A stretch of DNA of 64,000 nucleotides from a bacterium (GTDB lineage: Bacteria; Patescibacteriota; Minisyncoccia; UBA6257; GWB1-50-10), in NCBI GenBank assembly GCA_021801565.1, contig JAJYXV010000003.1, positions 68,894 to 132,893 on the forward strand. The letters are read 5' to 3'. Below are positions 24,504 through 54,847 of this stretch, one piece after another. The translations under genes and the position numbers were made by a program. Within the stretch, counting starts at the first letter, position 1, and each line of letters opens with the position of its first letter. Below the pieces are notes generated by a model. The model was not told the origin of the DNA. It saw only the letters and a list, made by a program, of their open reading frames with translations, and ran no database searches.

Positions 24504-25175
24504 ATGCGTTTTGATATTATTTCAATTTTTCCCGAATCATTTTCTTCGTATATTGATAGCTCAATTTTGAAGAAAGCGAGAGAAAAAAAACTTGTACAAA
24601 TTTCGATCACAAATCCACGCGATTTTACAAGTGATAAACATCACACGGTTGATGAGTCGCCGTATGGGGGTGGGCCGGGAATGGTGTTAAAAGCAGAGCC
24701 GATATGGAGGGCGGTATTGTCGGTGTTAAAAAAGAAAAAAAATGATTCAAAAAAAAGGAGGATCGTTCTTTTTTCCACACGGGGAAAAAAATTTGATCAA
24801 AAAGTTGCGAGGAGATTTTCAAAATATGAACAGGTGATTTTGATTTGCGGAAGGTATGAGGGGATTGACGAACGTGTTGCAGAATATCTTGCTGATGAAG
24901 AAATTTCAATTGGTGACTTTGTGTTATCAGGAGGTGAGCTTCCCGCGCTTGTATTTTTAGAGGCGGTGAGCCGTCATATTCCCGGTGTACTTGGAAAATA
25001 TGAGTCTCTCGAAGAAAAAAAAGGATCATACCCCGTATATACAAGACCAGAAATATTTGAGGGGCTAGTAGAGGGAAAAAAGAAAAAAATGAAGGTTCCT
25101 GAGGCACTTTTGAAGGGAAATCATAGATTGATAGATGAGTGGAGAAAGAAATATGGAACTTTTGCCGAAAAATAG
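24504..25175 (+). CDS. trmD: tRNA (guanine37-N1)-methyltransferase
   Basis: MRFDIISIFPESF N-terminus and SPOUT fold, with a lysine-rich insertion. ORF track starts at 24429. Confidence 0.9.
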   Translation: MRFDIISIFPESFSSYIDSSILKKAREKKLVQISITNPRDFTSDKHHTVDESPYGGGPGMVLKAEPIWRAVLSVLKKKKNDSKKRRIVLFSTRGKKFDQKVARRFSKYEQVILICGRYEGIDERVAEYLADEEISIGDFVLSGGELPALVFLEAVSRHIPGVLGKYESLEEKKGSYPVYTRPEIFEGLVEGKKKKMKVPEALLKGNHRLIDEWRKKYGTFAEK

Positions 25176-25184
25176 GGAAAAAAA

Positions 25185-25326
25185 GTTGACCCCGTAGTGA
25201 AAACTCGATTGTATATATACCAGTGGATAATAAAAAGGAAATTAAGTTAACCAAAGAAATATCTCAATGCTTACAAAAACCAAATTGTCGTAAGACGACA
25301 TATCGAGTTTCTACTACGGGGTTGAC
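25185..25326. mobile_element. MITE-like element: 130-bp body with 19-bp terminal inverted repeats, flanked by a 6-bp direct repeat GTTGAC
   Basis: Left TIR CCCGTAGTGAAAACTCGAT (25191-25209) and right TIR ATCGAGTTTCTACTACGGG (25302-25320) match at 17 of 19 positions as reverse complements. GTTGAC occurs at 25185-25190 and 25321-25326. Confidence 0.4.
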
Positions 25327-25350
25327 TTCATCTTGTGTTTTCTTTAAGAT
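25322..25350 (+). promoter_or_regulatory. Sigma70-like promoter TTGACT-17-TAAGAT for rpsB; its -35 is contributed by the downstream direct-repeat copy
   Basis: -35 at 25322-25327, 17-nt spacer, -10 at 25345-25350, 18 nt before the rpsB ATG. Confidence 0.4.
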
Positions 25351-25368
25351 GAATTACGCGTATTTTTT

Positions 25369-26073
25369 ATGGCAAAAATAATGACACAAGAAGAAATGGT
25401 GAAAGAGATGATCCGAAATGGAGTTGTTTTGGGTCACAAAAGATCGAAAACTCATCCAAAGATGAGGCAATTTATTGCGGGAAATAAAAATGAACTCGAA
25501 CTTTTGAATCCATTGACGAGTTGGGAAACAATTGAGAAAGCAATTGAAATATTGAAAGAAAAACTTTCGGGGGGTGGATTTATGCTTGTTGTTGGTACTC
25601 AACCCGCCGCGAAAGCGACAGTGAAGCAATTTGCTGATGAAATGGGATATCCATTTGTAGTGAGTCGTTGGCTTGGAGGAACACTCACAAATTTTTCCGT
25701 GATTAAAGGAAGGATTGTGCATTATGAAACATTGAAGGAAAATCAAGTGAAGGGGGCATTTGCAAAATATACCAAAAAAGAACAATTAAACTTCACAAAG
25801 GAAATTGCAAAGATGTCAAAAACATTTGAGGGACTTTTAAAACTAAAAAAATTACCGGAGATATTATTTGTAGTTGATGGAGAAGCACATATCACCGCAA
25901 TTCGCGAGGCGCGACGTCTTGGAATTCCAGTGGTCGCTATAATTGATACAAATGACGATCCATCATCTGTTGATTATCCAATTATTGCAAACGACCATAG
26001 CAGAAAGAGCATCGAATGGATAATCGGGCTGATAAAAGAAGCAATTACTATTCTCCCGAAAAAAGCAGAATAA
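25369..26073 (+). CDS. rpsB: 30S ribosomal protein S2
   Basis: VLGHKRSKTHPKMRQFI and the S2 family core. Confidence 0.95.
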   Translation: MAKIMTQEEMVKEMIRNGVVLGHKRSKTHPKMRQFIAGNKNELELLNPLTSWETIEKAIEILKEKLSGGGFMLVVGTQPAAKATVKQFADEMGYPFVVSRWLGGTLTNFSVIKGRIVHYETLKENQVKGAFAKYTKKEQLNFTKEIAKMSKTFEGLLKLKKLPEILFVVDGEAHITAIREARRLGIPVVAIIDTNDDPSSVDYPIIANDHSRKSIEWIIGLIKEAITILPKKAE

Positions 26074-26092: not shown

Positions 26093-26533
26093 ATGAAAGA
26101 AGATGTAATTAAATTAAGGGAACTCACAGGAGCAGGCGTGATGGAATGCAAGCATGCACTTGAAGAAGCGAAGGGAGATTTTAAGAAGGCAGAAGAATTA
26201 ATTCGTGCATCAAATGTTGCTCGTGCAGAAACAAAAAAAGAAAGAAAAACAGGTGCTGGGTTTTTGTATTCATATATCCACAATAAGCGCGTCGGAGTTT
26301 TGCTTGAAATACGCTGCGAAACAGATTTTGTAGTACAATCAGATCCATTTCAAAAACTCACTCATGATATTGCGATGCATATTGCAGCGATGGATCCAAA
26401 GACGGTTGATGAGTTACTTGCACAGCCATTCGTGAAAGATGAGTCAATAACGGTTTCTGACCTTATAAAACAAGTAATTGGGAAAGTGGGAGAAAATTCA
26501 AAAGTAGAACGTTTCTGCCGCTTTGAGGTATAA
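26093..26533 (+). CDS. tsf: Elongation factor Ts, short form (146 aa)
   Basis: LRELTGAGVMECKHALEEAKGD matches the EF-Ts N-terminal UBA-like domain. Confidence 0.85.
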   Translation: MKEDVIKLRELTGAGVMECKHALEEAKGDFKKAEELIRASNVARAETKKERKTGAGFLYSYIHNKRVGVLLEIRCETDFVVQSDPFQKLTHDIAMHIAAMDPKTVDELLAQPFVKDESITVSDLIKQVIGKVGENSKVERFCRFEV

Positions 26534-28954: not shown

Positions 28955-28992
28955 CCCTCATTCTAATGTTCTCAAGAACATTAGAATGAGGG
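28955..28992. promoter_or_regulatory. 38-nt palindrome (18-bp arms, core AATGTTCTCAAGAACATT) overlapping the start region of the ArsR-like gene
   Basis: ccctcattctaatgttct-ca-agaacattagaatgaggg. Related copies at 29274-29299, 51964-52003 and 30513-30534. Confidence 0.45.
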
Positions 28993-29306
28993 GGGAGGAA
29001 AGTGATATAATAAAGAATATGAAAGGGGATGGGGGAAGGTCAAAGTTTTATACACTAGAAAAGATAATAAAAGGAGCAAGCAATCATCGAAGGGTTGAAA
29101 TTTTATACCTCTTAAAAGAAAAGCCAAATCTTTCGGTTTTCGATATATCGGAAAAATTAAAGTGTAATTTCAAGACTATTTCCGAACATACGCGTCGGTT
29201 GGTGCAATCTGGGTTGATTTCGAAATATTCTGATGGAAGCTCGGTTCGTCACGAAATTACTTTATTGGGGGAAAATGTTCTCAAGTTCTTGAGAACATTG
29301 GAATAA
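28986..29306 (+). CDS. ArsR/SmtB-family winged-helix transcriptional regulator
   Basis: HRRVEILYLLKEKPNLSVFDISEKL...TISEHTRRLVQSGLI is a helix-turn-helix of the ArsR type. The likely start is the Met at 29019, after a GGGGGAGGAAAG RBS. Confidence 0.6.
   Translation: MRGEESDIIKNMKGDGGRSKFYTLEKIIKGASNHRRVEILYLLKEKPNLSVFDISEKLKCNFKTISEHTRRLVQSGLISKYSDGSSVRHEITLLGENVLKFLRTLE
29274..29299. promoter_or_regulatory. Palindrome AATGTTCTCAAG-TT-CTTGAGAACATT at the 3' end of the ArsR-like gene, upstream of the methyltransferase gene
   Basis: 12-bp arms. Shares the half-site with 28955-28992 and 51964-52003. Confidence 0.4.
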
Positions 29307-49837: not shown

Positions 49838-49899
49838 CTGCGGGACTAGGAGTCGGACCTAGATACCGGGATTCAAAGTCCCGTGTCCTACCATTAGAC
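49838..49899 (-). pseudogene. Partial tRNA-Gln copy (62 nt, D-arm to 3' end, no 5' acceptor strand), abutted by the palindrome CCTGCCTGCGCAGGCAGG
   Basis: Identical to nt 49951-50012 of the intact tRNA-Gln, but the 5' side reads gcaggcag instead of TGCGGGATC and cannot pair with the 3' acceptor strand. Confidence 0.5.
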
Positions 49900-49950
49900 C
49901 TGCCTGCGCAGGCAGGCGATCCTCAAATGAATATAAACTCTCGATCACAG

Positions 49951-50021
49951 CTGCGGGACTAGGAGTCGGACCTAGATACCGGGATTCAAAGTCCCGTGTC
50001 CTACCATTAGACGATCCCGCA
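49951..50021 (-). tRNA. tRNA-Gln (anticodon TTG), CCA not encoded, atypical T-loop TCCGACT
   Basis: Minus-strand reading: TGCGGGA-TC-GTCT-AATGGTA-GGAC-A-CGGGA-CTTTGAA-TCCCG-GTAT-CTAGG-TCCGACT-CCTAG-TCCCGCA-G. All stems pair. Position 55 is C rather than U. Confidence 0.7.
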
Positions 50022-51508: not shown

Positions 51509-51964
51509 ATGGCAGATTTTATACTCAAATGTTCATTATTTAAGGAAGATGGAATAATTCCTGCACGCTACACGTGCGATGGAGAAAATATAAATCCGCT
51601 TTTGGAAATTAGAGGAGTGCCCAAAGAAGCAAAAAGTTTGGTGCTTATTATGGACGATCCTGACGCGACGAATGGAAAGGTATGGGATCACTGGATTCTA
51701 TGGAATATTAATCCAAAGACACAATACATTTCGGAAGATTCTCTTCCACTTGATGTGGTGGTTGGAATGAACAGCTGGGGAAGTGCCCGGTATGGAGGTC
51801 CATGTCCACCACATGGCACTGTACCACATCGGTATATGTTTAAATTATATGCACTTGATGTTGTTCTTGATTTTCCTTCTGATACAAAAAAGCAGGAACT
51901 AGAACGAGCGATTGAAAGTCATGTGATTGCACGGACAGATCTCATGGGAAAATATGGAAGGTAA
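51509..51964 (+). CDS. PEBP-family protein (YbhB/YbcL-like)
   Basis: DPDAT...HW...GGPCPPHGTVPHRYMFKLYALD PEBP signature. Confidence 0.8.
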   Translation: MADFILKCSLFKEDGIIPARYTCDGENINPLLEIRGVPKEAKSLVLIMDDPDATNGKVWDHWILWNINPKTQYISEDSLPLDVVVGMNSWGSARYGGPCPPHGTVPHRYMFKLYALDVVLDFPSDTKKQELERAIESHVIARTDLMGKYGR

Positions 51965-52003
51965 ATAACATTCCAATGTTCTTGAGAACATTGGAATGTT
52001 ATT
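51964..52003. promoter_or_regulatory. 40-nt palindrome (core AATGTTCTTGAGAACATT, the reverse complement of the 28964 core) at the start of the 51976 gene
   Basis: aataacattccaatgttc-ttga-gaacattggaatgttatt, with 18-bp arms. Confidence 0.4.
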
Positions 52004-53632: not shown

Positions 53633-53830
53633 GTTTTTCCCCTTATATAATTGATAAATTCTATGTTTATCATAGTATTAAGTTATATAAGTTCAAGGAT
53701 TCTATTTATCCCGTTAAAAACAATAAAAACATAGAAACAAAGATGAATACCATAATTATGCAAATATATGTATCCAAAAAGGTCTTATTTAGAACATACG
53801 GAAGTGTAGACATTTCCTGTTTCTAACGGG

Positions 53831-54847
53831 ATGAAATTATCAATTGGCATTGTAGGTCTTCCTAATGTGGGGAAATCAACGCTTTTTAAGGCTCTGACCG
53901 CACAGGAAGTGCATATCGCAAATTATCCGTTTGCGACGATTGATCCAAATGTAGGAGTAGTGCCAGTTCCTGATGAGCGGGTTGATGCACTTGCAAAATT
54001 AAGTAATTCAAAAAAGAAAGTTCCTGCAGTTGTCGAGTTTTACGATATTGCGGGACTTGTGAAAGGAGCAAATCAGGGTGAGGGATTGGGAAATCAATTT
54101 CTTTCGCACATTCGTGAATGCAAAGCGGTGGTGCAAGTGGTTCGCTGTTTTTCTTCGGGAGAAATTATTCATGTCGAAGGTAACACAAATCCAGAAAGAG
54201 ACATTGATATCATCAACACCGAGTTATTATTAAAAGATCTTGATACGATTGAGAAACGATATCACAAAGCAGAGTCGGAAGCGCGAAGCGGAAAAAAAGA
54301 AATGGTGGTGGTGCGGGATGCACTTAAAAAAATAAAAGATGAAATTGAAAAAGGGGTTCCTCTTTTCACGCTCCCAAATCATTCTGAAATTCTTGAAAGT
54401 ATTAAAATGATTGGAGATTTAGGATTATTAACTGCAAAGGCACAAATTTTTCTTTTAAACGGAAATGAAAGCGATGTAAGCGACGCACTCAAAGAAAAAA
54501 TAAAAAAGATGAACGCGGAGTATGTAATTGCCGATTTGAGTTCGGGAAATGCCATTCCGGAACTTATTAAGAGTGCATATAAAATTTTGGATCTTATGAG
54601 TTTTCTTACTACCGGAGAAGATGAAACACGTGCATGGACAATTGAGAGAGGATCAAAAGCACCACAAGCGGCAGGTACCATTCACACTGATTTTGAGCAG
54701 AAATTTATACGGGCTGAAGTTATTTCGTACGAAAAACTTGTGCAGGCGGGCGGATGGGTGCAGGCAAAACAAAAGGGCTGGTTACGCCTTGAGGGAAAAG
54801 ATTATATTGTACAGGACGGAGATGTAATGGTAATAAGACATGGATAA
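53831..54847 (+). CDS. ychF: Ribosome-binding ATPase YchF (Obg-like)
   Basis: GIVGLPNVGKSTLFKALT G1 motif, NYPFATIDPNVG, and a C-terminal TGS domain. Confidence 0.9.
   Translation: MKLSIGIVGLPNVGKSTLFKALTAQEVHIANYPFATIDPNVGVVPVPDERVDALAKLSNSKKKVPAVVEFYDIAGLVKGANQGEGLGNQFLSHIRECKAVVQVVRCFSSGEIIHVEGNTNPERDIDIINTELLLKDLDTIEKRYHKAESEARSGKKEMVVVRDALKKIKDEIEKGVPLFTLPNHSEILESIKMIGDLGLLTAKAQIFLLNGNESDVSDALKEKIKKMNAEYVIADLSSGNAIPELIKSAYKILDLMSFLTTGEDETRAWTIERGSKAPQAAGTIHTDFEQKFIRAEVISYEKLVQAGGWVQAKQKGWLRLEGKDYIVQDGDVMVIRHG

Follow-up and report, generated by a model that had tools for sequence, protein, structure and literature searches.

Is the inverted-repeat segment that separates trmD from rpsB in the 64-kb stretch of DNA analyzed here (the window) a mobile element, and did it bring the rpsB promoter along or land in a promoter that was already there? 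The first-pass annotation of this DNA had described a non-autonomous element with terminal inverted repeats (TIRs) and a target-site duplication (TSD) in the trmD-rpsB spacer, and this description is upheld by further copies elsewhere and by empty sites in relatives. The reading that we favor, with a probability of roughly 0.93, is that positions 25190-25321 represent a 132-bp MITE that was inserted into the pre-existing rpsB-tsf promoter, with duplication of TTGA and with a partner transposase acting in trans. The features of the locus are as follows.

24504-25175, plus strand: trmD, the upstream gene (ORF list; 223-aa product; Pfam tRNA_m1G_MT on the identical gene in L001)
25186-25189, plus strand: left copy of the TSD, TTGA (empty site in L130 and L133; the 4-bp model fits 22 of 32 family copies)
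25190-25209, plus strand: left TIR CCCCGTAGTGAAAACTCGAT, the 'GA' arm (positions 1-9 invariant in 54 arms, the invariance of positions 3-19 being partly a product of the search pattern)
25210-25301, no strand: AT-rich interior of 92 bp (all-against-all blastn of interiors; folding)
25302-25321, plus strand: right TIR ATCGAGTTTCTACTACGGGG, the reverse complement of which is the 'AG' arm (repeat search; arm comparison)
25322-25325, plus strand: right copy of the TSD, TTGA, which forms bases 1-4 of the rpsB -35 box (empty site; family copies; promoter scan)
25322-25350, plus strand: resident rpsB-tsf promoter, TTGACT-17-TAAGAT (promoter scan; kept in relatives without the element)
25369-26073, plus strand: rpsB, ribosomal protein S2 (ORF list; homologues)
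26093-26533, plus strand: tsf (downstream of rpsB)

The locus thus reads AAAAAG-TTGA-CCCCGTAGTGAAAACTCGAT-92 nt-ATCGAGTTTCTACTACGGGG-TTGA-CTTCATC. The insertion point lies 10 bp downstream of the trmD stop codon (25173-25175), and the left TSD copy together with the first C's of the element spells TTGACC. The two 20-nt TIRs pair at 18 of 20 positions, or at 17 of 19 if the terminal C/G is left out, as had been stated for imperfect 19-bp repeats at the same positions. When the 19-mer arm was searched with up to three mismatches, the window matched only at 25191-25209 (plus) and 25302-25320 (minus), compared to 0.02 matches expected by chance and none of 100 shuffles with two matches. A repeat finder reported arms of 27 nt with 85% complementarity, 92 nt apart. 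The 132 bp have no coding capacity, their single internal ORF having 8 codons, and contain no transposase ORF; the attention drawn earlier to this ORF found no support, as interiors are unrelated between subfamilies. All-against-all blastn detected no homologue of this interior among those of other copies. A small hairpin, GTCGTAAGACGAC, adjoins the right arm, and a terminator-like hairpin is present on the minus strand (25300-25286). Besides this one intact copy, the 64 kb contain one distantly similar hairpin element (53709-53831).

It could be argued that the segment is native to the spacer and not mobile, a long hairpin RNA serving as trmD terminator or rpsB leader. The element region does fold far better than shuffled sequences on both strands (z -6.6 for plus, -5.9 for minus). 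The plus-strand RNA has a predicted stem of about 26 pairs, in which GUUGAC pairs with GUUGAC through G-U (minimum free energy -45.6 kcal/mol), and a U-rich stretch follows. According to this model, read-through transcripts of trmD would end in, or traverse, the hairpin and then the U-rich stretch. However, strong folding follows from the inverted repeats and does not indicate RNA function, and the minus strand folds equally well. A search of Rfam that covered the whole window found no family at gathering score for the element. Permissive matches (WsnRNA46 with 37 bits versus a gathering score of 65, and plant miRNA precursors) were discarded as chance or generic long-hairpin structure. The same arms also recur at unrelated loci with different flanks. 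The terminator alternative, which had been proposed together with a folding test, is ruled out as an origin by the empty sites described below, and we regard a native structured spacer as barely credible.

The trmD-rpsB spacer lacks the element in L130, L133 and L132, with RpsB identities of 85, 78 and 68%, respectively, and also in L131 (81% over a shortened gene call). Where contigs are long enough to show it (L131, L132), the gene order rpsP-KH-trmD-rpsB-tsf is kept. The single GTTGAC that had been suggested as a mark of the empty site was found: in L130 and L133 the site carries a single AAAAAGTTGACTT and the promoter reads ...AAAAAGTTGACTT-17-TAAGAT, with the L130 spacer sequence being ...AAACAAAAAAAGTTGACTTTGTTGTGTGTTTTCTTTAAGATGAATTGCGCGTATTTTTTATG. 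The filled spacer exceeds the empty one by exactly 136 bp, the summed length of the element (132 bp) and of one TSD copy (4 bp). These relatives, with RpsB 68-85% identical, are without the segment and have nevertheless kept the promoter, which refutes the structured-spacer origin.

The promoter scan located TTGACT-17-TAAGAT at 25322-25350, 18 nt ahead of the rpsB ATG at 25369, in agreement with the promoter-like site noted before. The same TTGACT-17-TAAGAT is present in L130, L133 and L132, and L131 has TTGACT-17-TAGAAT. Since relatives without the element carry it, the rpsB promoter is older than the insertion. We therefore reject the earlier proposal that the element supplies the rpsB -35 box: the box is resident, rebuilt from the TSD and the adjoining CT. 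Past the insertion point, promoter and leader have hardly changed with respect to the relatives. What has changed lies upstream, as the A-rich tract that precedes the -35 box in L130, L133 and L131 is found 136 bp away in the window, with ...CTACTACGGGG in its place. The identical element is present in four independent SRA assemblies with identical RpsB, and so the insertion is fixed in the population concerned and took place after the L130 lineage had split off.

A separate observation concerns the start region of rpsB. From promoter to start (25327-25371 in the window), the sequence TTTTCTTTAAGATGAATTACGCGTATTTTTTATG is nearly invariant in the window and in L130-L133, even though the identity of RpsB does not exceed 68-85%. 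A leader of about 12 nt is predicted, in which a Shine-Dalgarno sequence is missing. The start may thus be under regulatory constraint or be leaderless-like.

The tuf promoter provides a second pair of filled and empty sites. In L015 a copy separates TTGA from CT, and L136, with a Tuf protein 96% identical to that of L015, has a tuf promoter with a single GGGTTGACTTTTTT and no copy. The neighborhood of this promoter is also occupied by a different MITE (TIR CCCCGTGCGCATTCCTCC, about 95 bp), located in L134 and L135 at approximately 795-890, 12 bp upstream of the same tuf -35 box (Tuf 97% identical to L015). An apparent degenerate remnant of the right arm of this CCCCGTGCGCATTCCTCC-MITE is seen in L136 at approximately 860-890. 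The region upstream of the tuf promoter seems to be an insertion hot spot.

Additional copies, suggested early on as a check, were found in other Patescibacteria genomes and in metagenomes; in the source genome the search covered the 64-kb window. We collected about 32 paired copies at unrelated loci, all of them in metagenomes or in MAGs of other Patescibacteria. When one genome per species was scanned for the exact pattern, 12 arm occurrences were obtained, with both arms as an inverted pair on five contigs of MAG clean1859. Pairs with a slightly diverged partner arm were found in WY5.bin86 (three contigs) and in WY5.bin131 (one contig). The names carried by homologues of RpsB, Tuf and YchF assign both the source genome and clean1859 to Patescibacteria of the Paceibacteria/Jorgensenbacteria type. 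The metagenome scan contributed about 25 further paired copies, including several contigs of sample Ga0272448. Solo arms in L052, L055, L063 and L098 were excluded as chance matches or degenerate solo ends without a transposase, and the one in L126 is truncated by the end of its contig. No arms were found in a scan of viral contigs, and distant blastn against plasmids and phages gave no match.

The family TIR has the 20-bp consensus CCCCGTAGT[GA/AG]AAACTCGAY. In 29 of the 32 copies, one arm is of the ...GTAGT-GA-AAA and the other of the ...GTAGT-AG-AAA form, and this holds for all three TIR subtypes. Interiors are typically about 85-105 nt long, but can be as short as 18-26 nt or as long as 135 nt. 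They group in subfamilies that exceed 90% identity inside a sample and are unrelated to each other, a structure known from MITE families. The GC content of the copy-bearing loci ranges from 37% (window) to about 52%. Copies are intergenic and adjoin fusA|tuf, secF|sigma-region-4 gene, groES|relA/spoT-like, rpsT|ruvA, infA, adk|map and other genes.

Some copies stand in unusual contexts. A short-form copy in L010 (5527-5593), 59 bp plus a 4-bp TSD and hence 63 bp or 21 codons, lies in frame within an ORF of 438 aa without Pfam match. The product is longer by 21 residues, and 'VD' recurs at the two junctions. In L008 (423-566), the left TIR (CCCCGTAG) provides the TAG with which the adk-like upstream gene terminates, and the start of map lies 9 nt past the right element end. 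The CATG duplication in L012 (1220-1230) includes the start codon of an MgtC-like gene.

The direct GTTGAC repeats are present where they had been located, but the claim that all 6 bp are duplicated did not hold, because the comparison of family copies and the empty site both delimit a TSD of 4 bp. At rpsB it is TTGA, with copies at 25186-25189 and 25322-25325. Of the other hexamer bases, C 25190 and G 25321 on the inner side belong to the element as its termini, and G 25185 and C 25326 on the outer side are target DNA that was not duplicated. In 22 of the 32 copies the flanks show a perfect repeat of 4 bp, for which the chance is 1/256 per copy, with at least 12 distinct tetramers (CATA, TATG, TATA, TTCA, TGAA, CAAG, CTTG, CACA, TGGG, TTGA, TCAA, TCCA, CATG). 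The flanking tetramers were also considered as a constant part of the element, and their sequences differ between copies. Several of the 10 copies without a perfect TSD abut other elements. A duplication of 6 bp is incompatible with 10 copies that have a perfect 4-bp repeat and mismatched outer bases (for example L054 and L082), the CCCC/GGGG termini being constant. Terminal positions 1 and 2 (CC) are C in 53 of 54 arms, with position 1 lying outside both search patterns and positions 1-2 outside the metagenome pattern.

Target flanks display a palindromic preference, G-Y-N-N-R-C. This resembles two abutted element ends and probably explains the tandem arrays. Such arrays, with two to three elements 3-4 bp apart, are seen in L071 (387-823), L053 (165-596), L050 (5376-5839) and L019 (549-834). 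They comprise the TIR subtypes ...AAACTCGAC, ...ATCGAGCAC and ...AAAATGGAT, which have the outer CCC[CG]GTAGTRR in common, and they are consistent with insertion beside existing element ends.

The GTTGAC repeats could alternatively be the crossover core, common to element and target, of a site-specific integration by a tyrosine recombinase or of integron attC-like type. Right arm, hexamer and left arm would then form a palindromic core site, CTACGGGG-TTGA-CCCCGTAG, and several copies are indeed followed by CCCC or by the arm of another element, and the tandem arrays have spacers of 3-4 bp. The arrays are, however, explained by the G-YNNR-C target preference, and the 12 or more tetramers fit a staggered cut at loosely chosen targets and not a homology-dependent strand exchange. 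In addition, no integrase or recombinase was found in the window, and the flanks are direct repeats, not attC R''/R' inverse cores. We consider this explanation very improbable.

TIRs in combination with a TSD of fixed length and variable sequence point instead to mobilization in trans by a transposase with a 4-bp staggered cut, as in the MITE reading. At rpsB, the cut fell in the -35 box, between TTGA and CT, and its repair led to the duplication of TTGA. With the downstream TTGA and the resident CT, an intact TTGACT is again present, 17 bp from TAAGAT as originally, and the upstream TTGA copy and the former A-rich tract were displaced by 136 bp. Transposition was presumably of the DDE type. 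Expression may have been affected, for example through loss of the UP-like A-tract, or because read-through transcripts of trmD would have the 26-pair hairpin at their 3' end. An autonomous element or transposase with family TIRs was found neither in the 64-kb window, nor in 138 locus sequences (858 kb), nor in viral contigs. Inverted CCC[CG]GT termini 40-4000 bp apart in the 858 kb were just MITE-sized pairs, arrays and chance pairs in GC-rich contigs, and Pfam analysis of 10 unassigned window ORFs detected no transposase.

Nine copies have a TTGA duplication. They represent eight independent sites, as those in L007 and L089 are orthologous, and the genes downstream include rpsB, tuf, groES, infA and a sigma-region-4 gene. 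In all nine, C is the next base and a -10-like hexamer (A2, T6, at least 4/6 matches) follows at 16-18 bp, reading toward the adjacent gene. At the same loci, with element-adjacent sites excluded from the counts, a -10-like hexamer accompanied 22 of 161 TTGAC overall (14%), 2 of 23 GTTGAC (9%) and 15 of 42 intergenic TTGAC as defined by a crude ORF mask (36%). Compared to the intergenic-only null, eight out of eight sites correspond to p ~3e-4. Other copies have AT-rich TSDs (CATA, TATA, TATG) and no obvious promoter link. The TTGA pattern does not separate targeting of -35 boxes from survival of only the harmless insertions in compact genomes.

We tentatively consider, as a possible but not a likely reading, that the family is a promoter-seeking Patescibacteria MITE, the transposase of which prefers G-TTGA-C in active -35 boxes, with the box rebuilt by the 4-bp duplication. 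If this were true, the preference might be mediated by promoter DNA structure or by RNA polymerase, and the family would colonize the most highly expressed housekeeping promoters (rpsB, tuf, infA, groES) at low cost and add a hairpin insulator upstream. The conserved GA/AG mismatch would in that case be the sign of two ends that differ in function, or of a hairpin intermediate in an uncharacterized transposition pathway.

One may also suppose that the elements are mobile in origin and have been retained at housekeeping promoters because they are useful, for example as a cassette that combines a terminator or insulator with a promoter, or by regulating the promoter next to them. The consistent TTGAC and -10-like context of the nine TTGA copies, well above both the overall and the intergenic background, and the identity of the rpsB element in four samples would fit such a role. 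Yet the G-TTGA-C target preference and the purging of genic insertions in compact genomes predict the same pattern, and close relatives do well without the element. At other copies, neither the TSD nor the context has a relation to promoters, and in one case a short copy is in frame inside an ORF. Retention for usefulness therefore appears improbable to us.

The preferred reading, a MITE inserted into a resident promoter, invites comparison with known systems. The Correia elements of Neisseria are about 100-155 bp long, with 26-bp TIRs and a TA duplication; they are intergenic, yield hairpin transcripts and have promoter elements at their ends. The family described here is similar in size (about 130 bp), in its long hairpin-forming TIRs without an ORF, in its intergenic location, often just upstream of genes, in being multi-copy (as seen in genomes other than the source) with subfamilies, and in its interaction with promoters. 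It differs in its unrelated sequence, in its TSD of 4 bp (G-YNNR-C) rather than TA, in its Patescibacteria hosts, and in that the -35 box was resident and rebuilt by the TSD, not carried in.

IS1380 elements have 'CC' ends and 4-5 bp repeats. The piggyBac superfamily has been paired with prokaryotic IS1380 (PMC5718144), and piggyBac TIRs start with 5' motifs such as CCCTT and CCCTC and produce TTAA duplications, with rare variants such as TCAA and TATG (PMC10813416). Termini of the CCC(C)...(G)GGG type and 4-bp T/C-N-N-A/G duplications including TCAA, TATG and TATA are shared by our family, a resemblance of ends and TSD only, and its target is far more relaxed than the TTAA of piggyBac. From the CCC termini and the 4-bp YNNR target alone, an IS1380/piggyBac-like partner may be suspected, which we offer as a lead and not as a claim of membership.

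In hybrid promoters generated by insertion sequences, the -35 box comes from the IS end and the -10 box from the target (PMC9330008). Here, too, the end of a mobile element abuts a -35 box that acts with a resident -10 box for the downstream gene, but the complete promoter is older than the insertion and the -35 box consists of duplicated target DNA, not of element DNA. TIMEs are Tn3-derived inverted-repeat miniature elements with 38-bp Tn3-type TIRs and 5-6 bp duplications (PMC4133298). Like them, the present element is non-autonomous, has transposon-type TIRs and would be mobilized in trans; unlike them, it has 20-bp TIRs of other sequence and a 4-bp duplication.

The REP/REPIN and attC readings were rejected in view of the variable TSDs. 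In REP/REPIN elements, which are mobilized by RAYTs, the REP unit is a short palindrome with 5' GTAG and there is no target duplication; the arms found here contain GTAG but are not self-palindromic, and copies have 4-bp TSDs. Integron attC sites are recognized by inverse core sites (RYYYAAC...GTTRRRY) and by a crossover core that does not vary, with an integrase or a cassette array nearby; the flanks in our family are direct repeats that vary between copies, and the window has no integrase. A full-text literature search found no paper on MITEs in CPR/Patescibacteria or on this element. The family is seemingly undescribed and belongs to an already known kind of element.

The genomes of Patescibacteria (CPR) are tiny and streamlined, and their intergenic regions are short. 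The filled and empty sites provide a clean case of an active-looking MITE family common to CPR genomes of widely differing GC content (37-52%). Members of this family have been inserted time and again into -35 boxes at promoters of core translation and chaperone genes, and the boxes have survived. With this family it can be studied how mobile DNA is maintained in minimal genomes and whether it tunes housekeeping promoters. There is also a warning for annotation, as what an insertion has left upstream of rpsB, namely the GTTGAC repeat and the big hairpin, is a scar and not a regulatory structure.

The second hairpin element of the window (53709-53831, about 123 bp) immediately precedes ychF, the ATG of which (53831) is overlapped by the right arm. 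The arms, TCCCGTTA[A/G]AAACA, correspond to the family TIR minus 2 nt per arm, with the same A/G asymmetry and no visible TSD. At the same place, L138 (YchF 86% identical) has arms TCCCGTT[C/A]ATGATAG and a different interior, and L139 (79%) has no such element. The ychF hairpins would thus be two related MITEs that share a hot spot, or else a single old element whose arms have covaried.

Other observations in the window concern a tRNA and a set of palindromes. On the minus strand at 49838-49908, adjoining tRNA-Gln (49950-50021), Rfam identifies a tRNA with 40 bits versus a gathering score of 29 that was not reported by ARAGORN. Near-perfect palindromes with AGAACATT(A/G)GAATG are located at 28955-28992 and 29278-29304, flanking an ArsR/MarR-type HTH gene (28986-29306), and a third one is found 23 kb off at 51964-52003. 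These palindromes look like candidate operator sites of the ArsR/MarR-type regulator.
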